This document shows positions 13,054 through 57,708 of a stretch of DNA of 64,000 bases, piece after piece. Position 1 is the first letter of the stretch. Each line of letters opens with the position of its first letter. The stretch spans positions 5,075 to 69,074 of the forward strand of contig CAYNHE010000001.1 of assembly GCA_964397215.1 (NCBI GenBank). The letters are read 5' to 3'. Made by a program: the position numbers and the translations under genes. Source of the DNA: an uncultured Candidatus Saccharibacteria bacterium (GTDB taxonomy: Bacteria > Patescibacteriota > Saccharimonadia > Saccharimonadales > Saccharimonadaceae). The notes beneath the pieces were generated by a model. It searched no databases. It was not told the DNA's origin and was given only the letters and a program-made list of their open reading frames with translations.

Positions 13054-14238
13054 TCACTCCGTCTCGTTTGGCTTGAAGCCAAATTTCTTCTGTTTCTGTC
13101 CTTCTGCGGTGTCGCAGTAAATATTGAAACGTTGTTCGGATAACTCTAGTGCGAGCGACCAGATGGTCTCGTCGTTATAAACATAGTGCGAATTGCGTAG
13201 AATGCGCCAAATATCGGTGAACTGGAAATTAGGCAGTTGATTTTTTACTAGATAATTGGTCTCGGCAAACCTAATGAATGAATTGGTTTTGAGCGTCTGC
13301 CTGGCTTGGTCTTGAGGGGTGAGTCTAGGACTGAGGCAGTGATTAGTATGAACTGCTAGTTTGCCCAAATGGGTGTGCTGCTCAAGATTAATTTGCTTAG
13401 TTCTGCCACGAGTAGAGCTAATCGGAAGTTTTTCGGTGGTAGTAAGTTCGAGATTTTCGGGGCGGATAATTTCATATGATTTGGCTGCATGCTCGACGAT
13501 GGCGATGTCGCCTTTGGCATCGGCGATGAGGAAATTTTTGGGTTCGGCACAAGGAACTTTGGCAAAAATATTGAGTGCTTGGCGCGTAGTACGACACTTT
13601 TCGGCAATGAGGCGGAGAAAATGCGAGGGACAGAGTCCGTAATTCCACTGTTTAATGTTAGCAAAAGTAATTCCGATGTATAGGCCGTGCTCGTTAACGG
13701 TATCTTCAGTGTACATTTTTCGGTTATTCTTGCTGGTATGTCGATCCCAGACTGCCTCGTCCGAAAAAGCGAAATAGCGGTATGAGCCAGAAAGATCGAA
13801 TTCATATTGTTCGAAGAAATTTCGGGCGTTAGACAACCAATCATAATTGCGGCCGACATAAGTTTTGCCGTTTTCGTTTAAGGCGAAGATAGTACAACCA
13901 TGTTCTCGTGGCTTAACTAATTTATCGCTACTCTCAGCCTTTTTGTCTGTTGAATCGAGACTAGTATCGTCTAAGTTCTTGTGCGTTGCAGCGCGCCTCT
14001 GCCAAGTTTTAACAAAACTGGCCAAATCTTCGTACAACAAGAAACTGGGATCAAGGCCAATCACTTCGGCTGCGGCAGTGCGCTCTATGATGAGTTCTGG
14101 ATAATATTTTTCATAAATTTTAAGTTGAGTCTCAAGTAGCTCTTCGTCAATTTGACGACAAAAATCATGATGAAACTCTCGGAGTCGATTGCCGTAAAAC
14201 TCTCCTAATTCTTTCCTGGTGCCACGAAACTTAATCAT
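13054..14238 (-). CDS. Ntn-hydrolase, peptidase C45-like
   Basis: HGCT nucleophile site, GRNYDW, VNEHGL, HTNH. Confidence 0.75.
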   Translation of the reverse strand: MIKFRGTRKELGEFYGNRLREFHHDFCRQIDEELLETQLKIYEKYYPELIIERTAAAEVIGLDPSFLLYEDLASFVKTWQRRAATHKNLDDTSLDSTDKKAESSDKLVKPREHGCTIFALNENGKTYVGRNYDWLSNARNFFEQYEFDLSGSYRYFAFSDEAVWDRHTSKNNRKMYTEDTVNEHGLYIGITFANIKQWNYGLCPSHFLRLIAEKCRTTRQALNIFAKVPCAEPKNFLIADAKGDIAIVEHAAKSYEIIRPENLELTTTEKLPISSTRGRTKQINLEQHTHLGKLAVHTNHCLSPRLTPQDQARQTLKTNSFIRFAETNYLVKNQLPNFQFTDIWRILRNSHYVYNDETIWSLALELSEQRFNIYCDTAEGQKQKKFGFKPNETE

Positions 14239-16806: not shown

Positions 16807-17886
16807 ATGGTTTTACTTAATATTACACTACTTGTGGTAGGATTTTTCCTACTGATTAAGGGCGCGGATATTTTCGTCGATGGAGCATCTAGCACGGCAT
16901 CGAATTTTCGGGTGCCAAAAATTCTAATTGGTCTCACAATTGTAGCATTTGGTACTAGTGCGCCGGAGTTTGCGGTGTCAGTCTCGGCGTTAGCTAGCGG
17001 TAGTACAGATATGGTCCTTGGTAACGTGATTGGTAGCTGTATTTTGAATATTCTGTTAATTCTTGGCGTGGCAGCGGTAATTATGCCAATCAAAATTAGT
17101 GATGATACAGTGAAAAAGGAGCTGCCGCTTTGTATGTTGATTTCGGTGCTTCTAGTTGTGCTTTTTCTCGATAGAAGTCTGGCTGGTGGCAGCGTGAATG
17201 AAATTACTCGTGAAGACGCCATTGTAATTCTATTATTCTTCTTGGTGTTCATCTATTATCTTGTAACTCTAGCTAGGCGAAACCATAAGCAGGTTAATGC
17301 TTCCAAGTCATCAAAGAAACTTACCAAGGTTAGCAAAACTGCAAAATCGACTAAGTCAGCTAGAGCTAGTAAGGCGGCTCAGGTTGCCCAGAAAACTCCT
17401 TCAATCGCCGCCGAAGAAAAGCCGAAGTTCACGCTTGGTAAATCGCTACTATTTGTATTGCTTGGTCTAGTAGGGATTGTCATTGGTAGTGAATTGGTGG
17501 TAGATAATGCGACTTCAATCGCTGAAACAGTCGGCTGGAGTGAACGCGTAATTGCGTTGACGGTGGTTGCGTTTGGTACATCTCTGCCGGAGTTGGTTAC
17601 GACAATTGTTGCCGCGAGGAAGGGTGAACCAGATCTCGCTGTGGGTAACGTGATTGGCAGTAACGTCTTTAATATTTGTGTAGTACTAGGTATCCCGGTG
17701 GCGATTTTTGGTGCGATTACGCCAGGTAGTTTCGAGACAATTGATCTGGTGATGCTAGTTGCCTCGGCAGTGTTACTGTTTATCTTTGCCAAAACAACAC
17801 GTCGCATTACGCGACTTGAGGGCGTAATGATGCTCCTGCTGTTCGCGACGTATTTAGCTTTCTTGCTGGTGCCAAGTTTTGCCTAG
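16807..17886 (+). CDS. Ca2+/Na+ antiporter (YrbG family)
   Basis: Two alpha repeats GTSAPE and GTSLPE, GNVIGS twice. Confidence 0.92.
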   Translation: MVLLNITLLVVGFFLLIKGADIFVDGASSTASNFRVPKILIGLTIVAFGTSAPEFAVSVSALASGSTDMVLGNVIGSCILNILLILGVAAVIMPIKISDDTVKKELPLCMLISVLLVVLFLDRSLAGGSVNEITREDAIVILLFFLVFIYYLVTLARRNHKQVNASKSSKKLTKVSKTAKSTKSARASKAAQVAQKTPSIAAEEKPKFTLGKSLLFVLLGLVGIVIGSELVVDNATSIAETVGWSERVIALTVVAFGTSLPELVTTIVAARKGEPDLAVGNVIGSNVFNICVVLGIPVAIFGAITPGSFETIDLVMLVASAVLLFIFAKTTRRITRLEGVMMLLLFATYLAFLLVPSFA

Positions 17887-40491: not shown

Positions 40492-40531
40492 GCAAGACTA
40501 ATGTTGGTGTGGTCGCTGCGCACGGTTCTTC

Positions 40532-40723
40532 ATACTCCTGCAAACAGCGGAGAGAGAAACCGTGATAACGAGAATTCGGGCCGTTTGACGGATAAACGCC
40601 GGACCCATGAAAATCAAAGCGAAATGTACCTTCTGACGTAGCACCACTGCTTGACCAAGCAATGCCGGAAAAACCTGCTCCCCAAAAGAAACCGATTTTC
40701 AAATTAGTGTTACCGCTGCGCAT
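40532..40723 (-). repeat. Variable cassette C1: FISUMP/CLec C-terminal region, 63 codons
   Basis: MRSGNTNLKIGFFWGAGFSGIAWSSSGATSEGTFRFDFHGSGVYPSNGPNSRYHGFSLRCLQE followed by TAT instead of TAG. Confidence 0.85.
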
Positions 40724-40873
40724 GTAATTGAAACTAAATATGTTCTAAAAGCGCAAAAAACTATTAAAAATTGCCAAAAAATGCAAATTTTCTTATTTTT
40801 TTACGAACCTCGAAAAATTTAATTTTCCGAGGTTTACGACGCATCGCTTGTAGGTTACCATTTGCAGTGTGTT

Positions 40874-40968
40874 AGGTGATAAAAAATCGATTTTTATCAC
40901 CTGCTAGTTCGTAAGTAACAGAGGTGGAGTAGAAAATCTAGGTGATAAATTTTTAATTTTTCTCACCT
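40874..40968. repeat. Two 29-bp palindromes AGGTGATAAA-N9-TTT(A/C)TCACCT, 66 bp apart
   Basis: Copies at 40874-40902 and 40940-40968 in the spacer between divergent cassettes C1 and C2. Confidence 0.8.
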
Positions 40969-41033
40969 AAAGAAATTATGAAAAATCCGTATTTTTGACA
41001 AGATTTGGATCAAATTCCATGAAAAAGCATCTC

Positions 41034-41225
41034 GTGCGCAGCGGCTACACCTACATGGGCCTCGGTTTCTTGAGGTTCGCAGGCATCAGTGGCCTCTATT
41101 GGTCGCGTAGCGGCGTTGCCTCTACTACTGCGTACTACCTCCACTTCAATGCCTCTGGGGTGTACCCGTCGAACGGCCCGGCCAATCGTTACTACGGTTT
41201 CCCTCTCCGCTGTTTGCAGGAGTAT
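41034..41225 (+). repeat. Variable cassette C2
   Basis: VRSGYTYMGLGFLRFAGISGLYWSRSGVASTTAYYLHFNASGVYPSNGPANRYYGFPLRCLQE followed by TAT. Confidence 0.85.
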
Positions 41226-41243
41226 GAACTTTGCTTGAGCGAT

Positions 41244-42665
41244 TTACTTTCGTTTAGTTAGCACAATCAGATTCTCGATATGTGGCGTGCGTGGGAAGAA
41301 ATTGAAGGGTTGGATGAATTCTATTTGGTATTTTTCTTGGAGCATAGTAACGTCGCGTGCCTGTGTGATAGGATTGCACGAGAGGTAAATGATGCGCTCT
41401 GGCATGACTGCTAATAATTTTTCGATTAAGTCCTGATGGCACCCAGCGCGTGGCGGATCAAGAATCACGGTCTGGTCAGGCGCGATAAAATCAAGCGCCT
41501 CTTCAGATTTGGCAAGAACTGGGCGAGGGGTGGAGGCAACGCCATATGTTGCTTCTGGGGAGCTCTCGGAGCTTACGACCGGCGATTCAAGATTCCGAGA
41601 GAAACAAATGCTTGCATTTGCTTCCGAGGAATTGCAGAAGCGCGAGACGGCGAAGCCGGCGATGAGCGTAGGGCGCTTCGCGCCTGTAAAGACAGGTTGC
41701 GAAGACGCCCGGTCCTCAAAAGTAATACGCGATGCCATTTTTATCCCTTGTACATTCCTTTCCAACTCTTGATAGGCGGATTTATCACACTCGACCAGTG
41801 TTAATTCGTGGTCGCGAGCAATGGAAAGTCCGATGGTGCCGACGCCGGCATACAAATCAAGAACTTTACCAGGGAGCACCCATTTTTGCATTTCGCGTAG
41901 CGCAAGTTCGTAGACTGGCAAGTTAATTTGAAAGAAGCCATTAGGTGAATAACTGTAAGCTTGACCGAGAATCGTGTCGGTCAGATTGGCAAAAGTTGGG
42001 TGTTTCTGACCATTAACGAAGAGGCCGCCGCTAGTTTCACCAGCTTGGTTCGCTCGGAGGAGTAAACTTTGGTATTTGCGAGCGTCTTCGTGACGGTCGT
42101 TCAGGTCTTTAACAATTTCTTTAGCGCGAGCTAGGATTTCTGGACGTTCGATGCTTGACTCGCTGATCGGAATTTTACGATGGGAGCCACGCGCGTGGAA
42201 AGCCAGATGGATTCGCTGGTCATCATGGTCAAAATATAGCGCATATTCCATTTTATTACGATAATGATAATCTTGACCGTCCGTTACGACTGATTGCACT
42301 GTGAGACTGCCTAGTGCGAGATGCTGCTGGCGCAAAATTTCGACTACTAGCGCACGTTTGGTGGTGAGTTCGCAGTCGTAGGTCATGATTTGCCAAGGAG
42401 AAGTGGCGAGAAAAGCTTCGTCGCGCGGTTTAATGCGTTCCGGAGCAGGATTTTCGATTTCTAGAGCAATGCCTTCGAGATAAGTGCTTTTATCCTTGGT
42501 GATTTCGAATTTGGTGACGGTTTCACCGGGCAACGCATTCCAGAGCATGGCTTTCTTGCCGTTTGCGAGTGTGCCGAGCGCCTGTCCGCCGGGGATGATT
42601 TTAGCGATTTCGACAGAGTCGGTGGAGATTTTGGGCGCGCGAGGCTGATGAGATTTATTCCGCAT
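41244..42665 (-). CDS. RlmD/TrmA-family RNA (uracil-C5) methyltransferase carrying an in-frame ~60-aa insertion
   Basis: YRNKME, FFQIN, LDLYAGVGTIG, ILDPPRAG, YLSCNP, FPRTPHIE. Confidence 0.9.
   Translation of the reverse strand: MRNKSHQPRAPKISTDSVEIAKIIPGGQALGTLANGKKAMLWNALPGETVTKFEITKDKSTYLEGIALEIENPAPERIKPRDEAFLATSPWQIMTYDCELTTKRALVVEILRQQHLALGSLTVQSVVTDGQDYHYRNKMEYALYFDHDDQRIHLAFHARGSHRKIPISESSIERPEILARAKEIVKDLNDRHEDARKYQSLLLRANQAGETSGGLFVNGQKHPTFANLTDTILGQAYSYSPNGFFQINLPVYELALREMQKWVLPGKVLDLYAGVGTIGLSIARDHELTLVECDKSAYQELERNVQGIKMASRITFEDRASSQPVFTGAKRPTLIAGFAVSRFCNSSEANASICFSRNLESPVVSSESSPEATYGVASTPRPVLAKSEEALDFIAPDQTVILDPPRAGCHQDLIEKLLAVMPERIIYLSCNPITQARDVTMLQEKYQIEFIQPFNFFPRTPHIENLIVLTKRK
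41548..41728. mobile_element. Palindromic repeat element (REP/RPE/MITE-like), copy 1, inside the methyltransferase ORF
   Basis: Near-identical to 46791-46972 (reverse complement) and to 59552-59665. Confidence 0.8.
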
Positions 42666-44001
42666 ATTGCCAAACCTGTCCGTTTGCGGTATCTAGCACT
42701 GCGATACCACGTTTAAGAAGTTCTGCGCGTAGTTTGTCAGATTTTGCATAATCTTTTTGCTCGCGTGCGAGACGACGTTGCTCAAGTAGTGTTTTAGCAT
42801 CATCATCAATATCCTTGGCCGCATTGATTAATCCTAGCCCGAACAGTTGATCGATTTTTTGCCAGCAGGCGTAGCTTAAATCGTCGTCTTGGTCAATAAT
42901 TGCAAACGCCGCTGCCGAATTTAGATTATCATTCACTTCAGCCAGCACATTGTCGAAACAATCTTCGGTTCCCTCTTGGTTTTGCCAGTGGCGGACGATT
43001 TGGTTTATCCAGCCCAGGCGGCGAGTTTTGGCTGCGGCGAGACTAGCAAAGCTAAAATCGCGTTCAGTACGATAATTCCCTTGCAGCACCCACATTTTGT
43101 AGTCGAGCGGCGAAAAGCCTTTCTCAGCCAGTTGGTCTAGAGTCCAGCCATTGCCGAGGCTTTTAGAAATTTTTTCGCCGTCCACCGTCAAATGGTGGCA
43201 ATGCAACCAATAATTGGCGAGTTTTTTGCCGTAAGCGGCTTCACTCTGCGCGATTTCGTTAGTGTGATGCACCGGTACGTGGTCAACGCCTCCGGTGTGA
43301 ATATCGATTGGTTCCCCCAGTTCAGCATGAATAATACTGGAACATTCCAGATGCCAGCCCGGATAGCCCGGACGGCCCAGAAAATCCCAACGCATGGCGT
43401 GATCTTCGCCAGGTTTGATAAATTTCCAGACGGCAAAATCAGAAACATGTTTTTTCTCAGCGTTAAAATCGACGCGCTTGCCAGCTTCGAGTCCAGCTAG
43501 ATCCAATTTGGCAAAATCCGCATAGGTCGCAAATTTACTCGTGTCAAAATACAGGCCGTCAGTGGTTTCGTAGAGATACCCCTTTTCTAGCAAAGTTGTC
43601 ACGAGTGCCTCATCTTGGGCGATATAATCAGTCGCGCGCGCGATAATATCTGGTTCGACGAGATTAAGTGCGGCGATGCCTTTTATAAACTCGTTGCTGT
43701 AATAATCGGCGATTTGCCAGACGGTTTTGCCCTCGCGCTTGGCGCCTTTTTCGAGTTTATCCTCGCCTTCGTCACCATCGCTCGTTAGATGGCCAACGTC
43801 GGTGAGATTTAGCACTCTTTTTACTCCATAGCCGTTGGTTTTGAGAGTTCGCACCAGCAAATCCCAGTATACGTAGGCGGCATAGTTGCCGATGTGTGGC
43901 ATGGAATAAACCGTTGGGCCGCAAGTATAAATTTTTACTTCGGCCGGGTTAATAGGCTTAAATTCTTCAAGTTTGCGCGTGAGTGTGTTATATAGTTTCA
44001 T
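42655..44001 (-). CDS. cysS: Cysteinyl-tRNA synthetase
   Basis: MKLYNTLT start at 44001, CGPTVY, HIGN, PGWHLECS, HTGGVDH, KISKSLGN. Confidence 0.96.
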   Translation of the reverse strand: MKLYNTLTRKLEEFKPINPAEVKIYTCGPTVYSMPHIGNYAAYVYWDLLVRTLKTNGYGVKRVLNLTDVGHLTSDGDEGEDKLEKGAKREGKTVWQIADYYSNEFIKGIAALNLVEPDIIARATDYIAQDEALVTTLLEKGYLYETTDGLYFDTSKFATYADFAKLDLAGLEAGKRVDFNAEKKHVSDFAVWKFIKPGEDHAMRWDFLGRPGYPGWHLECSSIIHAELGEPIDIHTGGVDHVPVHHTNEIAQSEAAYGKKLANYWLHCHHLTVDGEKISKSLGNGWTLDQLAEKGFSPLDYKMWVLQGNYRTERDFSFASLAAAKTRRLGWINQIVRHWQNQEGTEDCFDNVLAEVNDNLNSAAAFAIIDQDDDLSYACWQKIDQLFGLGLINAAKDIDDDAKTLLEQRRLAREQKDYAKSDKLRAELLKRGIAVLDTANGQVWQYAE

Positions 44002-44851
44002 GATCAATCTCCCGTAAAGTTTTCTTAAGTTCGATGAGGATTTTGGTGCGCTTATGTGAAGAAACGTCATGATGCCCCATCACGCTAGCAAAACGCACGT
44101 GCGTATTATGATCGGCAACGCGCTTGAGGTTAGAATACATCACTAGCGGATCAAAATGCCCATGAATCAGCAAAGTTGGCGTTTTAATGTTGGTAAAAGT
44201 CTGGTAGTTTTTGCGATTCAGGATAATCTGGTCCATCGACTTGCCAAAAGCCGGCGTGCGCAAATATTTTGACCGAAAACTGCTAAAACGTTGGATGAAA
44301 TTAGCCAAGACTTCGACCGCTGGTTCTTCGGCAGCGATTTTTTGCAATGAACTGTAGGATTTAGTGTAGGCCTTGTCGGGCAGTTTGGCCAGCTCAGCAT
44401 TCATCAACACCGGTGGAGAAACCAGAATGAGTCGACAAATGTCAAATTTAGTCGGGAAATTCACCGCAAAATCCGCCGCAATCAGCGCCCCCATCGAATG
44501 ACCAATGAGGACTACGGGAGTTTTAATCCGGAATTTTTTCATAGTGCTTTCGAGCGCCTGCTCGTAATCGTGGTAGTCATAATCCAGCCAATCACTTTGC
44601 AAAGATTTACCAAAACCTAGCAAATCCAGCGCATAGAAACTAATTTCGTCCAGTTCGGGATTGCGGCTAAATTGGCGCATAGTAATCCGCCAGGTTTCTG
44701 AAGTAGCAGAGGTGCCGTGGAGAAAAATCACGGTGAGGCGAGGATTTTTGACTTTGCGCACGAAAAGTGGTTTCATCACAATCGGTCGATGTAGCATCTT
44801 GTGCCAAACGTAGGTTGTCAGGTTATAGAGTCCATTGCTTGACCAGGTCAC
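43988..44851 (-). CDS. Alpha/beta hydrolase
   Basis: FLHG, DLLGFGKS, GHSMG, IHGHFD. Confidence 0.88.
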   Translation of the reverse strand: MTWSSNGLYNLTTYVWHKMLHRPIVMKPLFVRKVKNPRLTVIFLHGTSATSETWRITMRQFSRNPELDEISFYALDLLGFGKSLQSDWLDYDYHDYEQALESTMKKFRIKTPVVLIGHSMGALIAADFAVNFPTKFDICRLILVSPPVLMNAELAKLPDKAYTKSYSSLQKIAAEEPAVEVLANFIQRFSSFRSKYLRTPAFGKSMDQIILNRKNYQTFTNIKTPTLLIHGHFDPLVMYSNLKRVADHNTHVRFASVMGHHDVSSHKRTKILIELKKTLREIDHETI

Positions 44852-45918
44852 GATGCTTGTTCCTTGAGTTTATCTGCGAAACCTTTGGGGAAACTAATTT
44901 TGTTGCCAGCGGTGCTAGGTTTGATTTCTGGTTCTGCGCTAGTGGTGGCTTTGGCGGCGAGTTTTGGCACGATTTTAATCAAATCTCGCACAACTTCGTC
45001 ATAACTGGTATCGTAAGTGCGGAAACCGGCCGCATAAGGGTGACCACCACCACCAAAATATCCGCTGATTTGGTCAGCAATCGGAATGGAAGTGCGGACT
45101 TTGCCGGTGACTTTACCGTCAGGATAAGTTTTGACTGCAACTGCGATTTCGACACCGGAGACTAGTCGCAGCTCTTCGAGAATTAGCACATTAGGATTAT
45201 ATTCGTCAGAGTAAGCCTGGATGTCTTCGAACGGAATGTGAATCGTGGCGAGTTTACCATCGAGATGATATTCGACGCGCTTAATTAAATCTGCCTTGTA
45301 ATCGAGAATGCGCGGAGATTTTTTCATGAATTCACGCCGACGTTCATCGAGTTCAGAAGGGTTGACGCCGAGTTCAATGAGTTCCGCCATAGTGCGCATC
45401 GTGTCAGCCGTCACACTAGCGCTGACTAAACCAAGCGTATCGCTCGCGATGGCATAATAAATTGCTTCCGCGGCGGCCAGTGGGATGGGTAGCTTCTCGG
45501 CTTTGGCGACTTGATAAATCAAATCCGCACAAGCTGGCATTACTTCGATAATTGATTCGTGTGGAAAGTCCAAATCATCAGGGGTCTCATGATGATCGAA
45601 AACAAAAACCGGTTTAGTATAAAGCGCGTTTTTAATCGCATCGTTTTCTAATAATTTTGACAAGAGGACGCTAGCCGCTGTATCCACGATAATATAAGCA
45701 TCTGCATCAAAGTCAAAATCAATCGAAACTCGCGACCATTCTTTGAAATAATGCAAATACTTGGGGATTTCTACTGGACAATAGAGCGAATTCTCGGTGT
45801 TCTGCAGAATGTAGTCGAGTGCAATGGCACTACCGAGTGAATCACCGTCTGGGTTCTCAGCTTGGATGATTGAAATGCGGTTTTTGCCATGCAAAAAATC
45901 AGAAAATTTATCGTACAT
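44848..45918 (-). CDS. DHH/DHHA1 phosphoesterase (NrnA-like)
   Basis: NPDGDSLGS, VDT, FDHH, SDT, GGGHPYAAG; ATG 45918. Confidence 0.9.
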   Translation of the reverse strand: MYDKFSDFLHGKNRISIIQAENPDGDSLGSAIALDYILQNTENSLYCPVEIPKYLHYFKEWSRVSIDFDFDADAYIIVDTAASVLLSKLLENDAIKNALYTKPVFVFDHHETPDDLDFPHESIIEVMPACADLIYQVAKAEKLPIPLAAAEAIYYAIASDTLGLVSASVTADTMRTMAELIELGVNPSELDERRREFMKKSPRILDYKADLIKRVEYHLDGKLATIHIPFEDIQAYSDEYNPNVLILEELRLVSGVEIAVAVKTYPDGKVTGKVRTSIPIADQISGYFGGGGHPYAAGFRTYDTSYDEVVRDLIKIVPKLAAKATTSAEPEIKPSTAGNKISFPKGFADKLKEQAS

Positions 45919-46014
45919 ATTATATATTATATGCCAAAGAGAAGAAAAAGGCAAATTGGATTATACCAGTAGTAAGTCTTTAAAAGCGTTAACACGTCTT
46001 CCTCGAACCGGGCA

Positions 46015-46704
46015 TCACTGTTTCTTCTTTTTGGTATTTTTCTTAGGGGTACGCTGAGATGGCGTTTGAGTTGGAAAAGCCTTGTAGTGGCGTTGTTTAA
46101 GCTTGCTTTTTTCGCCAAGAATTTCCCGAATGCGCTCGGAGATTTCTTCAGTCGCGTCACGTTTGGCTGTGTCAACGGTGACTTTATACACTGTGATAAG
46201 ATAGAGCGAAAATCCAACGTCGATTAATAACGCCATGAAAAGGACGATAGCCAAAATCTCCCAAATCCTAATTGGCAGAAGATCGAGAAGCCAAAAGAGA
46301 GTTGGGTTAACGAATTTAAGAATCAGCACGCCGGCTACGCCAAAACACAGCACCGAGCCAATACAAATCCGTCCATTGAGATTAAAGGGTTGCTCGGTGT
46401 AATCCCACCAACGAACATGAAACGCGATTTCCATCCACCAGCTAGTTAAATATTCCAGCAAAGCGCCACCAATCATGGAGACGCAGACGATTTCGATGAT
46501 GCCATCCGAACGACTACAAAGAAACGAAAGTAACAGCGCGCCAGTGCCATAAACTGGGCAAATTGGCCCGATGAGAAAGCCACGATTGATTAATTTCTTG
46601 CGATTCATGAGATTTACCAACACTTCTATCACCCAACCAGCAAAAGAGTAGAAGATAAAAATCAGAAACCAAGTTGCCAGAAAGTGAGGGATGGTGGATT
46701 GCAT
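46015..46704 (-). CDS. Putative ABC transporter permease (CmpB/DUF1113-like)
   Basis: GFLIGPICPVYG, RWWDYT, NLNGRIC. Confidence 0.8.
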   Translation of the reverse strand: MQSTIPHFLATWFLIFIFYSFAGWVIEVLVNLMNRKKLINRGFLIGPICPVYGTGALLLSFLCSRSDGIIEIVCVSMIGGALLEYLTSWWMEIAFHVRWWDYTEQPFNLNGRICIGSVLCFGVAGVLILKFVNPTLFWLLDLLPIRIWEILAIVLFMALLIDVGFSLYLITVYKVTVDTAKRDATEEISERIREILGEKSKLKQRHYKAFPTQTPSQRTPKKNTKKKKQ

Positions 46705-46777
46705 AGGGTTATTATATCATGAAAATTATGCTGAATGAAAATGCTTTTTATAAAACTGGTTTCTTATAAAACATATT

Positions 46778-46987
46778 CTAGTAATTGGCAGTATTACTTT
46801 TGAGGACCGGGCGTCTTCGCAACCTGTCTTCACAGGTGCGAAGACGCCCTGCGCTCATCGACGGCTGCGCCGTCTCGCGATTCTGCAATTCCTCGGAAGC
46901 AAATGCAAGCATTTGTTTCTCTCGGAATCTTGAACCGCCGGTCGTAAGCTCCGAGAGCTCCCCAGAAGCAACACTGCCAGTTACTAG
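46778..46987. mobile_element. Palindromic repeat element copy 2 (core 46791-46972) with 15-bp flanking inverted repeats
   Basis: CTAGTAATTGGCAGT ... ACTGCCAGTTACTAG (1 mismatch); internal hairpin GGGCGTCTTCGC-A-ACCTGT-CTTC-ACAGGT-GCGAAGACGCCC. Confidence 0.8.
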
Positions 46988-47115
46988 GACATGCTTCACA
47001 TTAATCTTGAAAAGGCACTCTAGACAACAGCATACTTAAACTAGAATAAAGTTTGAATTATATTAATAACTCAAGCGCAGTTTGCATTTTCTAAAATACT
47101 AAACAATTAAGCGAA

Positions 47116-47182
47116 GTCCATACTTTTTTGAGACTAAAGACTTGGCCTAAGCGGCGACAACGCGGTCTCAAAAAGTATGGAC
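47116..47182. repeat. Long hairpin downstream of cassette C3
   Basis: GTCCATACTTTTTTGAGAC / GTCTCAAAAAGTATGGAC arms; loop contains AAGACTTGGCCTAAGCGGC. Confidence 0.8.
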
Positions 47183-47190
47183 GAGCGCTC

Positions 47191-47382
47191 CTACTCCTGC
47201 AAACAGCGGAGAGAGAAACCGTAGAAACGAGCGCGTGGTTCAAGCGATAAAGATGTTGATCCAGCACCAAGTGCAACAAAGTAAGCGCTATCATCGTCAG
47301 TGCTATTACGAGACCAGTAATATCCGTTAATTCCTACGATTCTCAAGATGCCGCTAAACATGTCCGTATGGCCGCTGCGCAC
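47191..47382 (-). repeat. Variable cassette C3
   Basis: VRSGHTDMFSGILRIVGINGYYWSRNSTDDDSAYFVALGAGSTSLSLEPRARFYGFSLRCLQE*. Confidence 0.85.
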
Positions 47383-47390
47383 AATTCGTT

Positions 47391-47582
47391 CTACTCTTGC
47401 AAACAGCGGAGAGAGAAACCAAGGTAACGATAGGCTTGATTACTTGATACTTCAACATCTATATCACTGAATGAAAAACGGTATGCATTATAAGAATCAG
47501 CGCCAGTACGCGTCCAATAAGGCCCAGCCATGCCAACATATCCTAGAAAACCGTTACCTATGTGAGGTCGGCCGCTGCGCAC
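47391..47582 (-). repeat. Variable cassette C4 (tandem with C3, 8-bp gap)
   Basis: VRSGRPHIGNGFLGYVGMAGPYWTRTGADSYNAYRFSFSDIDVEVSSNQAYRYLGFSLRCLQE*. Confidence 0.85.
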
Positions 47583-47614
47583 GAGTGCTTTTTTGGCCCA
47601 ACCATCGCTTGCTG

Positions 47615-47714
47615 AAGTGTGCGCGGTTTTTCGATTTCTGCGCGTAGATTTTTGATGATTAACAGAGGTAGAACCGGAAAAAGTGTGTGCGGTTTTGCAA
47701 AAAGCGCGCGTAGA
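47615..47714. repeat. Two 34-bp imperfect direct repeats with palindromic cores, 66 bp apart
   Basis: AAGTGTGCGCGGTTTTTCGATTTCTGCGCGTAGA (47615-47648) and AAGTGTGTGCGGTTTTGCAAAAAGCGCGCGTAGA (47681-47714). Confidence 0.75.
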
Positions 47715-47726
47715 ATCAGCTACTTC

Positions 47727-47918
47727 GTGCGCAGCGGTAACATCTATCTAGGATACGGTCTCTTGAGGGCCGCAGACATCTACGCGTTTTACTGGTCATG
47801 CAGCGGCGGTATCTCCACTACCGTTTATAACCTCCACTTCATGGCTTCAGGAGTGTTCTCATCGCATGGCCCAGACTATCGTTACAACGGTTTCTCTCTC
47901 CGCTGTTTGCAGGAGTAG
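47727..47918 (+). repeat. Variable cassette C5
   Basis: VRSGNIYLGYGLLRAADIYAFYWSCSGGISTTVYNLHFMASGVFSSHGPDYRYNGFSLRCLQE*. Confidence 0.85.
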
Positions 47919-47930
47919 GAGCGCTTGCCC

Positions 47931-47988
47931 CTAATTTTCTGAAATATAAGACTTGGCCAAGCGGCCCGGAGCGATTTCAGAAAATTAG
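47931..47988. repeat. Perfect 15-bp hairpin downstream of cassette C5
   Basis: CTAATTTTCTGAAAT / ATTTCAGAAAATTAG; loop contains AAGACTTGGCCAAGCGGC. Confidence 0.8.
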
Positions 47989-53957: not shown

Positions 53958-54046
53958 ATTTTCCCTTTATAATTATTATTTTGCCCCTGCCAACTGAGGG
54001 GCGCACTATGATTTATTGTAACAGATTCTGTAGAATTTTTGTAGTA

Positions 54047-54075
54047 TTGACTTTTGACAAATTATTTGATATAAT
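54047..54075 (+). promoter_or_regulatory. sigma70 promoter divergent from fusA
   Basis: TTGACT-17 bp-TATAAT with extended TG. Confidence 0.65.
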
Positions 54076-54234
54076 AGAGAGATAAGGGTCTACTTTTGTT
54101 CTTTTATTATCTGATAGCAAAATAAAAGCAGCAGGTGGACATTCTTTTTACAATCTCAGGGGTCACGCAAGCGCTATTTAGCTGGGTTGGCGGAATAATT
54201 CTTGAGAAATCAAGCACGAAGGAGGGATAATCTG

Positions 54235-54357
54235 ATGAAAGCTGGAGCCGTTAAACGGTTCTTGGCCAGTGCGGCAATTATGTGCGCAGCGGTACTGGCG
54301 TTGGTAACGTTAATTTTAATCTTAATGTCTAAGTCGCCAGCGATCTACTTAGACTAA
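54235..54357 (+). CDS. Candidate 40-aa single-TM small protein
   Basis: AAGGAGGG RBS; MKAGAVKRFLASAAIMCAAVLALVTLILILMSKSPAIYLD*. Confidence 0.45.
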   Translation: MKAGAVKRFLASAAIMCAAVLALVTLILILMSKSPAIYLD

Positions 54358-54372
54358 GAAACGGAGGGTAAA

Positions 54373-54831
54373 ATGTTAGGAAAAATTGTAAAAGTTGGCA
54401 CAACGTTTGTCAAGGATGTTTGTATGTTGGTAGGCGGAACAGTGATCGTCGGAATTGGTTGTATCATTGCTGAGGATCTGATCCAGAAGCGAGACAAGAG
54501 CAACAAGGAAAAGGCTACTGCGCGCAAGGATAGCAACGTATCTACCGCCGAGGATCCGGCTTGGAAAGAGGTGGATGAGTCTGAGTTCGATGATGAGGTC
54601 GGCGATGAATACGGTGGCGAAGACAATCTCAACGGAAATTCGGACGAGCCTATCGAGGCGAGTCATGATTTCGAGCAGCCGCTTACGGAAACATCGCCTG
54701 AAGGATCGGATGGTGCGCACCAGACCACGAAGCAGTCTGACCAGCCTACTGCCGAACAGACCGACAAAAAGGCATCTGGGCAGACTGAAGGAGCAGCTAA
54801 GCCTGTAGACGAGAAAGCCAGCGAAGAATAG
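54373..54831 (+). CDS. Acidic hypothetical protein with N-terminal hydrophobic segment
   Basis: GGAGGG RBS; 152-aa ORF. Confidence 0.6.
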   Translation: MLGKIVKVGTTFVKDVCMLVGGTVIVGIGCIIAEDLIQKRDKSNKEKATARKDSNVSTAEDPAWKEVDESEFDDEVGDEYGGEDNLNGNSDEPIEASHDFEQPLTETSPEGSDGAHQTTKQSDQPTAEQTDKKASGQTEGAAKPVDEKASEE

Positions 54832-55804
54832 ACTCGGTAGCCTTATAATGTTAGTTGGTAGTTGGCCTGACTTGGTTTGATCGGGGTTTTATTTGTTATC
54901 GAATTTTGGCACTGAGAGAATGAACTCGGTGCCAATTTTTATTATTGTAAAGTTAAACATCTTTGAGTAATCCAGACATGTTCAGCACAGTTTACCTCCT
55001 AATAAACTACTTGTGCTTTTGAAATTAATTTGCTAAAATAAAGGTACGTAAAATTGTTAGAAAAAGTTACGATGATTTATTGCTCTCTACTTAGGTAGTG
55101 AGCAATAATGGGTTTAATGCGCCATTCGACGCATATGAGCCAGAGTAAAAATCTCATCATTCCATCTCCTTTCCCACCACACTCTACAATTTAACGAACA
55201 GAGGTCTAGACCACTCTATTTCTCAGTATACCCTATTTTTGCGAGGTCGCAGAATCGAAATGTCGAGTTACTTAATAGAGTGTTAAGTAACTGGCAATTT
55301 CGTATTTTTTACCCCTGTTAAATTATTACGAGAATTTTTGGCACGATTTCGCTCATGTAAAACCAGAAAAATCACTTGCATTATCAAAATTCATGCTATA
55401 ATTAGATTGCAATAGTTCAGTAAAAATAAGCAATCATGTTTATTTTGTTTGTAATATAAAATTCACATATCAAGTGCAGAATGGGTGTCATGAGAAATTC
55501 AGGAAGCACTTGATGGAAGTCATGATTGTCTTGCTGGACTATTGCACTCGTGGCGCCCATTTTTGTTGCGCTGCCAAGTCTCTAACTTCTGGCCGGATGT
55601 ATATGAGAAAACTACTAGGGTTAGGCTCTAGGTTGGTTTGGATTTATTGTACCTCGAAAACGCGGTTTCGGTATTTTGCTAGTAGGATATAATACCGAGA
55701 TACTGGTTGTCCTCAGTATAAGACGTGTTCTCTTAAATCCATAAGCCTAGACCTAATCCAGTAGTGATAGATATCAATATACTTAAACCATGGAGTAAGT
55801 TCAT

Positions 55805-57658
55805 ATGCTTAGAAGAAATATTAACTTTAATCTGATAGGATATATCAGTGTAGGGATACTTGGTGTCGTGGCGATAGCGGCATGTTTACCCACCACCACT
55901 AGCCGCGCTTCCGCCGCTCCCCTCACTACCACGGCTGGGGTCGCCATTACGGCTAATAGTATGGCTACGGTAGCCATTAGCGTTGACGAACAAGTAACTA
56001 TCGATATTACACCCACCTCAAGCCGTAATGGCGACTTCATGAGTGGTGTAAGTAATGTGCATGTCTCTACTAATAATACGTCTGGCTATAGTCTATATAT
56101 GTCAGCCGTGAATGAGACTGGTAATTTGGAACCTATTACTACTAATGCTGATAGTAAAGCCATTACTAACCTTTCTGTAGATACTCTTGGCACTAACTTC
56201 ACTGGCAATACTTGGGGTTATAACTTAAGTAAAGTAACTAGCGCTAATACTATTAGTAGCAATGAGGGTAGGAGTGTAGAAGAGAGTGTAGAAGAGAGTG
56301 TAGAAGAGAATGTAGGAGGAGAAAGTGCAGGAAGAGCTAGTAGCAGCTCTGCTGCTACTAGTCTCACCTATTCTGCGGTTCCGACTAATGCTACTACGGC
56401 TATTTATACCACTGACTCAGCTAACCTAGAGAATAGTGATGACTACTACTTAACCTTTGGTGTAAACATTGATAATACTCTTCCAGCTGGTACTTATACT
56501 AACTCTGTCCTAGTCTCTGCGGTAGCTAATCCTATTACTATATCAGAACTATCTCAGCTTACCTACATGCAAGACATGACTAGTAGTATTTGTACTAATA
56601 CTATGGAACATGCCACCAAACAACTAGTTGATACTCGTGATGGTAAGAAATACTGGGTAGCGAAACTTAAGGATGGGAATTGTTGGATGACACAGAACCT
56701 AGCCTTGGATTTATCGAAAGAAAAGACTTTGACGAGTAGCGATACGGACCTAGAGTTTGTGCCAAAAAATGATGACGGAAGTGATTATGAGTTTACGCCA
56801 GAAAGTGACACCAATGAATATGCCTCGTTTAGTGAGGCCCAAAGCGTAAAAGACGCCTCATGGAATTTTGGAAATCTTATCATGGGCACCCCGACTTTTA
56901 GAAAACAATGTATGCCGTATGCGATGTCTATAAGTCAGATTATTGAAAACTGCGCGTCGGTGGGAGTTTATGATGTATCTGGTGATTGGAAAGCGACTTA
57001 CCAGTCCAAACCCGGCACATTGACTCTGTTAAACGGTCAAACTTATCCAACAGATTTCGCTTCAAATATTAGCCCTAATGATGCATATATTATATCTGTT
57101 GACCCAAATAATAAAACCTACGACGCACACTATCTTTTTGGTAGCACCTATTTCTTCCAGGCTGCTGCAGCCGGTACTAATACAAAAGTGACTGAGGCCA
57201 TGAGTGCAGTATCTGGTAGTATCTGTCCGAAGGGCTGGCAATTACCAAATTCGGGACGATATACTGCAGAGATTGCCGGTAGTGACACGAGTTTAATAGA
57301 AAAACCTTTAGACAGAGAAAAAAGTTTTTATCGATTACTACTTGCTTATGGTTATCCAGAGAATACACAGTATGAAGTTATTAGTAACGGCGGACAAACC
57401 AACATGTTATACGGAGCAAATCAGAATATTAACGCTGATCCATTTTATTTCTTCGCCCCTGGCTCTATTAATTTTGTTCGTGGCGTAGTGGGTATCGGCT
57501 CGCATATCTATTTTACATCGGCAACCGCTCTAAACACTATGAACAGGTTAGCGTTCTATAGTGGAATTAAAAATTTTGCGCAAGGAGAATTCGTCATTAA
57601 ACCTGCTAACGGAGATGGTGGTTTATATAGCATGCCAGTCCGTTGCCTTGCTCGCTAA
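55805..57658 (+). CDS. FISUMP (Fibrobacter succinogenes major paralogous) domain surface protein
   Basis: Signal/TM N-terminus; YMQDMT, LVDTRDGKKYWVAKLKDGNCWMTQNLAL, SICPKGWQLP, terminal PVRCLAR. Confidence 0.85.
   Translation: MLRRNINFNLIGYISVGILGVVAIAACLPTTTSRASAAPLTTTAGVAITANSMATVAISVDEQVTIDITPTSSRNGDFMSGVSNVHVSTNNTSGYSLYMSAVNETGNLEPITTNADSKAITNLSVDTLGTNFTGNTWGYNLSKVTSANTISSNEGRSVEESVEESVEENVGGESAGRASSSSAATSLTYSAVPTNATTAIYTTDSANLENSDDYYLTFGVNIDNTLPAGTYTNSVLVSAVANPITISELSQLTYMQDMTSSICTNTMEHATKQLVDTRDGKKYWVAKLKDGNCWMTQNLALDLSKEKTLTSSDTDLEFVPKNDDGSDYEFTPESDTNEYASFSEAQSVKDASWNFGNLIMGTPTFRKQCMPYAMSISQIIENCASVGVYDVSGDWKATYQSKPGTLTLLNGQTYPTDFASNISPNDAYIISVDPNNKTYDAHYLFGSTYFFQAAAAGTNTKVTEAMSAVSGSICPKGWQLPNSGRYTAEIAGSDTSLIEKPLDREKSFYRLLLAYGYPENTQYEVISNGGQTNMLYGANQNINADPFYFFAPGSINFVRGVVGIGSHIYFTSATALNTMNRLAFYSGIKNFAQGEFVIKPANGDGGLYSMPVRCLAR
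56273..56320 (+). repeat. 12-bp tandem repeat AGTGTAGAAGAG x3 plus one degenerate unit (SVEE)
   Basis: Read directly; in-frame within the FISUMP gene. Confidence 0.9.
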
Positions 57659-57708
57659 ATCAGACATTCTAACCGTTTTATGCTCCGCACCTTGTGACGG
57701 AGCATTTT

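Follow-up and report, generated by a model that had tools for sequence, protein, structure and literature searches.

Gut Saccharibacteria appear to keep a dispersed store of silent cassettes for exchanging adhesin tips

Five cassettes at two intergenic loci

We analyzed a 64,000-nt stretch of DNA from an uncultured Candidatus Saccharibacteria bacterium (assembly GCA_964397215.1, contig CAYNHE010000001.1, positions 5,075 to 69,074; hereafter, the window), in which five short coding segments, the cassettes C1 to C5, are located in two intergenic clusters. The window is ordinary chromosome, with genes for LysS/AsnS, NUDIX, RumA, CysS, a hydrolase, a DHH protein, CmpB-like proteins, RmuC, MetK, EF-G, GatCAB, UvrD/AddA-like helicases, a sortase, LDH and MurJ, among others. 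Its EF-G is 89-90% identical to NCBI proteins labelled Candidatus Saccharibacteria bacterium, and its sequence is present in rat and mouse gut metagenomes. C1 and C2 are found between the convergent NUDIX and rumA genes, and C3 to C5 between the divergent CmpB-like and rmuC genes (Table 1).

As originally predicted, the five cassettes are of equal length, align without gaps and share fixed ends: each comprises 63 sense codons followed by TAG or TAT, with no internal stop, and the frames upstream of C1-C5 show no homology to a gene body. A motif of 29 nt at the 3' end, searched with up to 3 mismatches allowed, has 5 matches in the window, whereas shuffled sequences give an expectation of 0, and this search also recovered the single mismatches noted earlier in C2 and C4. 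The 5' motif TCGTGCGCAGCGG is present at all five cassette starts and at a truncated sixth start, with one further, unrelated match in the window at 54280. The first 11 nt and the last 29 nt of the cassettes are 98-100% identical. By contrast with these ends, 122 of the 189 columns vary (40, 35 and 47 at codon positions 1, 2 and 3, respectively), and pairs differ at 48-89 of 189 nt and at 23-42 of 63 amino acids. The closest pair is C2/C5, for which the computed 48 differences replace an earlier hand count of about 49 of 192. In the core, the synonymous rate dS is at least 0.9 or not computable, and the nonsynonymous rate dN is 0.29-0.86. The ends differ in one respect from the original description: in C3, C4 and C5, TAG directly follows LQE, whereas in C1 and C2 the stop is replaced by TAT, and the frame continues into a linker (YEE.. 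in C1 and YEL.. in C2, hence LQEYE..). The same form of linker joins cassettes in in-frame tandem arrays elsewhere (LQEYELVRSG in P0019, for instance), and that of C1 runs into the start of the truncated sixth cassette.

Table 1. Cassettes and associated features, in positions of the 64,000-nt window
Feature	Position	Strand	Remarks
Truncated sixth cassette start	40513-40525	(-)	GTGCGCAGCGA; 8 nt after the C1 linker; cut off by the 3' end of the NUDIX gene
Cassette C1	40532-40723	(-)	63 codons; ATG start; ends LQE then TAT; linker YEE
Head-to-head spacer 1	40724-41033		palindrome copies at 40873-40902 and 40939-40968, 66 bp apart; core TAACAGAGGTGGA at 40916-40928
Cassette C2	41034-41225	(+)	GTG start; one 3'-handle mismatch (Pro for Ser); TAT; linker YEL
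Long hairpin directly downstream of C3	47105-47190	(-)	RNA fold z = -4.8
Cassette C3	47191-47382	(-)	in tandem with C4, 8 nt past the C4 stop; ends TAG
Cassette C4	47391-47582	(-)	one synonymous 3'-handle mismatch (CAA)
Head-to-head spacer 2	47583-47726		144 bp; palindromes at 47615-47648 and 47681-47714, 66 bp apart; core TAACAGAGGTAGA at 47660-47672
Cassette C5	47727-47918	(+)	ends TAG
Long hairpin directly downstream of C5	47919-47995	(+)	z = -3.9; homologous to the post-C3 hairpin, with different stems and a shared loop
Full-length adhesin paralogue, 617 aa	55805-57658	(+)	signal peptide, immunoglobulin (Ig)-like domain, FISUMP-like domain; other C-terminal codons, without both handles

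C1-C5 match the FISUMP model TIGR02145 (PF09603) at positions 130-175/176 only, with E = 0.01-0.1 and scores of 13-16 bits, against a curated cutoff of 41.65. In full-length relatives, a FISUMP-type domain ends with this stretch. Three of these relatives score at or above the cutoff (P0218, 42.1; P0211, 57.2; P0112, 157.2), whereas P0161 (32.7) and the 617-aa gene of the window (36.9) remain below it, with E-values of 1e-7 to 1e-9. Judging from these profile matches, the cassettes are predicted to be the last third, or tail, of a FISUMP-type domain and to contain no whole domain, in agreement with their original assignment to the C-terminal region of FISUMP proteins. FISUMP domains have the C-type-lectin fold, and the conserved cassette pattern is protein-like (W, YWS, AY.L.F, PS, R..GF.LRC). 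In AlphaFold2 predictions, a cassette alone has a predicted local distance difference test score (pLDDT) of 46, whereas the full-length relative P0161 (559 aa) reaches 88.9, with about 95 for the corresponding 76 residues, which in this model form beta strands integral to the C-terminal domain. A search of the PDB for a sequence match with which to check the tip fold returned none, and Foldseek with the whole P0161 model returned matches to the N-terminal pilin-like domain only. The latter, at residues ~55-205, resembles the chaperone-usher pilins CfaB, FimA and Csu (E = 1e-4; target template modelling score 0.55-0.6), and is found here in lipoprotein-like proteins of a monoderm-type bacterium with a sortase.

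These results bear on an alternative raised in the original prediction, that the cassettes are free-standing genes for 63-aa peptides starting with GTG or ATG. All five frames are indeed intact, each has a possible start codon, and such open reading frames (ORFs) are called by gene callers elsewhere. However, in full-length genes this GTG encodes the Val of the F-V-R-S-G junction, tandem copies run on in frame with no starts of their own, and truncated stubs exist. Direct reading of the sequence revealed no Shine-Dalgarno motif at the cassette starts, and promoter and terminator scans stayed at background level, with no convincing promoter at the cassettes. Because the match is confined to the FISUMP tail, the segment is predicted confidently only inside the whole protein and Shine-Dalgarno motifs are lacking, we regard the cassettes as fragments rather than proteins and the existence of free peptides as scarcely credible.

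To define the wider family, Joint Genome Institute metagenomes were scanned for the 5' handle, 160-190 nt and the 3' core, which yielded at least 80 loci in 742 kb of related contigs. Six-frame searches of these contigs with hidden Markov models (HMMs) identified 164 cassettes, 137 of them unique. Thus, the five cassettes, originally described as a repertoire, are not the whole set. The frame is open and complete in 126 of the 137 unique cassettes, most of the others being cut by contig ends. One contig of 176 kb carries at least 21 cassettes and another of 154 kb at least 17, and the density of the library is estimated at about 1 per 8-13 kb; here, too, the cassettes are located between housekeeping genes. 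Among pairs, 38 are head-to-head (modal spacer 140-141 bp), 14 tail-to-tail (modal gap ~53 bp) and 5 in tandem. Three long cassettes (L041, L069 and L088) carry 31-73 residues of the gene body ahead of the handle. Around the ~160 cassettes, the only recurrent gene family is that of the adhesin (9 distinct members), the others being housekeeping.

A profile built from the five cassettes retrieved only short ORFs in a word-indexed search, and 3425 proteins in an exhaustive HMMER search. The best of these matches are mostly ORFs of 63-200 aa with one to three cassettes, and the remainder are real multi-FISUMP giants in which the profile matches the tail of each domain. Viral contigs yielded no cassette matches, and a scan of GTDB species representatives with the 3' motif yielded two chance matches only (SAR202 and Nitrospinota). 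In the source metagenomes, sequencing depth at the cassette ends is roughly 4-20 times that of the flanks, and many different sequences continue past sharp boundaries at 41032 and 47920. Apparent read joints between the two cassette clusters derive from short unitigs common to paralogous cassettes and were not interpreted as rearrangements.

Conserved handles and tip differences between strains

The conserved ends of the cassettes, which we refer to as handles, recur in diverged lineages with the same codons. The 5' handle, (T)TCGTGCGCAGCGG, measures 11-15 nt and encodes the F-V-R-S-G junction, and the 3' handle, GGTTTCTCTCTCCGCTGTTTGCAGGAGTA plus a few bases, measures 29-45 nt; the ends always read GTG CGC AGC and CTC CGC TGY. 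In a lineage whose CysS is 62% identical to that of the window, the same codon is used at only 43% of the conserved residues; its cassettes have the identical start TTC/GTGCGCAGCGG and also keep the 3' end CTCCGCTG. The start TTC/GTGCGCAGCGG is found in 96 of the 126 full-length copies, and nearly all the others differ only in the 3 nt before GTG. C1 alone starts with ATG rather than GTG, without the preceding TTC/CTC (TAC/ATG, 40723), and very few such variants of the 5' handle exist among the 126 copies. In paralogues with non-matching ends, the same residues are encoded by CGT, TCA or GTT codons, as in L042 (TTC ACT CGT TCA GGC) and in the 617-aa gene of the window (TTT GTT CGT GGC and GTC CGT TGC). 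Since the codons are fixed in the cassettes and different in the non-matching paralogues, the handles are constrained as DNA and not only as protein.

The same handles are found in full-length genes. L067 is the sole cassette of the 164 that has a long in-frame upstream ORF: it belongs to a 552-aa protein with a signal peptide, the body of which is homologous to the 617-aa gene of the window, with the junction ...APLYF/VRSG and the end ...GFPLRCLSTVPGM before the stop. At the DNA level, full-length genes with the handles are represented in sister lineages by L067, L074 and L089. Full-length homologues number 426; the FVRSG junction and an RCL tail are found in many of them, and some carry a PF09603 annotation. 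One of them, P0218 (605 aa, NCBI), ends ...QPLYFVRSG...GFSLRCLQE, which at the protein level is the window's own tail type. An acceptor gene of this P0218 (QE) type would end ...TTCGTGCGCAGCGG-core-GGTTTCTCTCTCCGCTGTTTGCAGGAGTAG.

The 617-aa paralogue encoded in the window was considered as an acceptor for C1-C5 and rejected because its C-terminus, written in other codons, lacks both handles. Two other loci, L014 7567-7775 and L042 95-336, contain full-length paralogues without the cassette 5' handle (FTRSG in other codons in L042; LYLSG in L014), in which an inverted cassette follows 13-34 bp past the stop codon, tail-to-tail. No junction inverted repeat able to fuse L014 or L042 with its inverted cassette was found.

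Comparison of strains revealed replacement of tips and cores in place, at expressed and at silent loci and including the position of C4 in the window. At the expressed-type locus, the bodies of L067 and P0161/L089 are 99.8% identical over 483 aa, whereas their tips are 62% identical and differ in length. The DNA of L067 and L089 is identical up to ...TACTTCGTGCGCAGCGGG (...TTCGTGCGCAGCGGG), then about half identical with insertions and deletions, and identity resumes at CGTTGGCATGGTT.CCCCCTCCGCTGCCTGAGTACTGTA (CGTTGGCATGGTT.CCCCCTCCGCTGCC), so that the breakpoints coincide exactly with the two conserved cassette ends. The silent loci L041 and L069 have flanks that are 97-98% identical and cores of 153 and 183 bp that cannot be aligned. 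Similarly, C4 of the window and its counterpart P0107 in another strain have in common 40 of 41 translated residues of the upstream spacer but only 31 of the 63 cassette residues; P0107 continues into a GAGCGC flank, with no second cassette. Conversely, the same cassette occurs in unrelated contexts, with 98% identity over 221-253 nt.

Exchange may also be segmental. The expressed core of L067 matches different silent cassettes by segment, with 93% identity over 130 nt and 94.5% over 55 nt. Between L001 and L003, from strains 99.6% identical overall, four of the six cassettes are unchanged and one has 7 changes inside a 20-bp patch, for which no donor was found. The fixed synonymous ends had originally been read as recombination handles on a stored library swapped onto an expressed adhesin elsewhere; the codon constraint, the position of the breakpoints at both ends and the handle-bounded tip replacement between L067 and L089 lend support to both parts of this prediction.

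The same comparisons weigh on the view that the cassettes are decaying gene fragments or a selfish repeat resembling miniature inverted-repeat transposable elements, with no role in variation. Their dispersal in intergenic regions, the identical copies in unrelated contexts and the 29-bp inverted repeats formed by the outer ends of head-to-head pairs are what such an element would offer. However, complete open frames persist in 126 of 137 unique copies despite saturated dS, and the conservation pattern is protein-like. Differences at fixed loci consist of cores exchanged in place, not of insertions or deletions, and in functional full-length genes the variable tip is bounded by the very same handles. 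Inspection by eye of a subset of the flanks revealed no target-site duplications. We consider decay or selfish spread very improbable.

Candidate mechanisms of exchange

On this evidence, C1-C5 are probably silent tip cassettes, part of a genome-wide library for tip replacement by recombination into a full-length adhesin. Lacking promoter and gene body, the cassettes would each reproduce the last 63 codons of an adhesin, a surface lipoprotein composed of an N-terminal signal, a pilin-like Ig domain and, at the C-terminus, a FISUMP-type domain. Recombination between the handles would replace the hypervariable core, both in a full-length expression gene located elsewhere on the genome and among the silent loci, placing a new binding or antigenic tip on an unchanged body. 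The process is envisaged as non-reciprocal, homology-guided copying (gene conversion) of the whole core or of segments by the general recombination machinery, of the kind known from vls, pilS, msp2 and MgPar. Such copying is the simplest mechanism, given that there is no reverse transcriptase (RT) or Avd nearby, no enriched recombinase, no inverted repeat at L014 or L042 and no flipped spacer. We infer that transfer proceeds from silent to expressed loci, that it depends on the general recombination machinery and that the cassettes are not transcribed. The benefit could lie in a change of binding to host bacteria, or in escape from antibody or phage.

Several points weigh against tip replacement by homology-guided copying. 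The full-length FISUMP gene with the same ends anticipated in the original prediction was found at the DNA level in sister lineages and at the protein level in P0218, but not within the 64-kb window. No exact donor for an expressed tip was found, the best match being 93-95%, and all evidence of swapping is comparative, between assemblies. Furthermore, the 5' handle, at 11-15 nt, is short for RecA-type recombination, and its invariance across deeply diverged lineages hints at sequence-specific recognition over plain homology. Because this handle is so short and both handles are so deeply invariant, a dedicated sequence-specific mechanism stays alive.

One such mechanism would be a site- or structure-specific exchange of the shufflon/Min invertase or integron attC type, in which the handles are the recognition sites of an enzyme encoded elsewhere. 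It would account for handles that are invariant between lineages as distant as that with the 62% identical CysS, for breakpoints exactly at the handles and for the alternating orientation of the cassettes (the 38 head-to-head, 14 tail-to-tail and 5 tandem pairs). In addition, the sequences of the two handles complement one another (UGCGCAGCGG / CCGCUG..UGCA). With the five cassettes as input, RNAalifold returned a covariation term of -0.16 and thus no evidence of structured RNA beyond this invariant terminal stem, which covariation cannot reach because both of its sides are invariant.

A conserved hairpin-core-hairpin element between the heads of the cassettes points in the same direction. Every head-to-head spacer contains two palindrome copies around the core TAACAG(G/A)GGT(A/G)GAG (TAACAGGGGTAGAG). 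The palindrome sequences are wholly different between spacer families, including the two spacers of the window, whereas the architecture and the core are kept; unrelated palindromes in a common architecture suggest a structural requirement and not a single DNA-binding protein. The architecture is also seen in L001 6791-6930, L070 145-270, L021 1006-1178 and L061 903-1047 (in the window, 40873-40968 and 47615-47714). A near-copy of the spacer core, TAACAGGGGTAAA, is located at 55308-55320 (-) of the window, ~490 bp upstream of the 617-aa adhesin paralogue, and adjoins a small hairpin (GTTACTTAA...TTAAGTAAC). The hairpins downstream of C3 and C5 have the common loop AAGACTTGGCC.AAGCGGC, which reads the same on the plus strand although the two cassettes are opposed, so that the loop is inverted relative to its cassette in one case compared with the other. 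We infer that the spacers and the downstream hairpins either shield the cassettes from read-through transcription or have a part in recombination.

Against site-specific exchange, no recombinase family is encoded in the window and none is enriched near the ~160 cassettes; the recombinase that the original prediction named as supporting evidence was not found in this DNA. Moreover, inversions would scramble the genome, the cassettes being scattered among housekeeping genes, L014 and L042 lack a junction inverted repeat, the terminal stem lies beyond a covariation test and no flipped spacer (inverton) was found in orthologous pairs. Thus, we consider an invertase- or integron-like exchange unlikely.

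A second possibility is a diversity-generating retroelement (DGR): the cassettes would be its variable repeats, or its relics, into which an RT encoded elsewhere copies a template repeat bearing identical ends. DGR targets have been reported among FISUMP proteins (PMC11661182), the 3' handle is similar to a G/C-rich segment with an initiation-of-mutagenic-homing site after it, and variable positions are rich in NAC codons. Furthermore, the locus L007 (8861-21188), from a distant lineage that looks Bacteroidota-like, is a DGR locus with 32 tandem cassettes of this kind between a bAvd gene and an RVT_1 gene, the latter followed by HU. These cassettes (FFPASGYR...GF.VRCVQASAAVFAFTK) form continuous ORFs of 976, 734 and 815 aa, and such an array inside a DGR looks unusual in itself. 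One pair of copies, the Asn-rich copy at 13164 and the copy at 17117, has 25 differences; at 80% of these sites, the Asn-rich copy has an adenine.

The cassettes of the window do not share this signature: in every ordered pair of C1-C5, A makes up 12-35% of the source bases of differences, with no adenine excess, and all codon positions vary across the 122 variable columns of 189. This agrees with the original conclusion that adenine-only mutagenesis fails to explain the differences. No RT or Avd was found in the window, where no ORF of at least 120 aa has a YxDD motif; phmmer with the L007 RT and Avd found no matches in the 742 kb around the ~160 cassettes, and viral contigs had no matches to the cassettes. 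Four of six cassettes are identical between the strains that are 99.6% identical, and alleles differ in length, which a single template repeat would not yield by template-directed homing. We therefore regard a DGR origin of the cassettes as improbable.

A broader possibility joins elements of these two alternatives. A genome-wide library of ~100 copies, ~2% of a genome of <1 Mb, with sequence-specific, complementary handles would imply a dedicated exchange mechanism that retargets the pilin-like FISUMP adhesin of the epibionts, by folded-strand (integron attC-like) recombination or DGR-descended homing, with the spacers as part of the machinery. We offer this as a tentative and somewhat doubtful extension of tip replacement from silent cassettes.

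Beyond the cassettes themselves, two features of the window concern its rearrangement. An inverted repeat of 183 bp (96% identical, at 41547-41728 and 46791-46973) flanks the 5.2-kb housekeeping block that separates the two cassette clusters. Its right copy is a reversed fragment of the rumA methyltransferase gene (~aa 312-373), intergenic and adjoining C3, and the repeat may be the scar of an inversion or duplication. In addition, the window at 54000-57700, between the genes for a UvrD-like helicase and EF-G, contains the 617-aa adhesin paralogue and a long intergenic region, whereas the same segment of the closest relative found (L090 6681-7990; EF-G 96% identical) contains an unrelated 314-aa gene. 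Judging from this comparison, the adhesin locus is likely a variable island. No Rfam families were found in the window.

Significance and comparison with known systems

As ultrasmall epibionts, Saccharibacteria (TM7) depend on attachment to specific host bacteria. To our knowledge, how they choose or change hosts and evade antibodies or phage is largely unknown, and there is almost no genetics. Gut Saccharibacteria appear to use a cassette store to swap the tips of full-length adhesins, as some pathogens vary their surface antigens. If true, the Candidate Phyla Radiation would thereby gain its first described silent-cassette variation system, and a large class of unannotated metagenome ORFs of 63-200 aa (the 3425 matches) would be explained. 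No description of a tip-cassette system in Saccharibacteria was found in the searchable literature, in which antigenic variation in Patescibacteria is discussed as speculation only (PMC11809585).

The R64 shufflon and the Min, Gin and Cin systems also store alternative C-terminal segments of adhesins or fibres, the orientation of which alternates, and have a short conserved sequence where the segments are fused. Here, by contrast, neither an invertase gene nor an inversion was found, and the segments do not form a cluster behind a single constant segment. The DGRs of Bordetella phage (Mtd) and Treponema (TvpA) diversify the same part of the same kind of domain, with a G/C-rich conserved 3' boundary and a short 5' boundary, and the related array L007 is located inside a DGR locus. 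However, no RT, Avd or template repeat is found near the present cassettes, there is no adenine-specific pattern, and the diversity resides in many different stored copies instead of arising from one template. The DGR-flanked L007 array suggests an evolutionary link between stored and generated diversity on one protein scaffold.

In Neisseria pilE/pilS, as proposed here, silent copies that lack the gene's 5' part are a source of variable C-terminal sequence for an expressed gene of a surface filament or adhesin, and short conserved islands guide segmental conversion. By contrast, no G4 (guanine quadruplex) element or pilS-type locus was seen here, and the protein is a lipoprotein with chaperone-usher-pilin-like Ig and FISUMP domains, not a type IV pilin. 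The vlsE/vls system of Borrelia has in common with the present one promoterless cassettes with open frames, some of them in in-frame tandem, short repeats bounding the variable region and the lack of a nearby dedicated recombinase; there, a single expressed lipoprotein gene receives copies of all or segments of that region. The vls cassettes are arrayed contiguously beside vlsE on a linear plasmid, whereas those described here are scattered over the chromosome, mostly as head-to-head pairs, and only the C-terminal tip of a FISUMP-type domain is exchanged.

Other small-genome, host-dependent bacteria also have many dispersed partial copies of adhesin or surface-protein genes, namely, MgPar in Mycoplasma genitalium, RepMP in M. 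pneumoniae and the msp2/p44 functional pseudogenes in Anaplasma. In these systems, too, conserved ends surround a hypervariable core, the copies recombine with one or a few expression sites, and some copies carry extra upstream homology, as do the long cassettes L041, L069 and L088. The protein family and the phylum are different. Compared with these systems, the handles of the Saccharibacteria cassettes are far shorter (11-15 nt at the 5' end and 29-45 nt at the 3' end) and invariant across diverged lineages, and the copy number appears to be higher, with at least 17-21 copies per ~150-175 kb.

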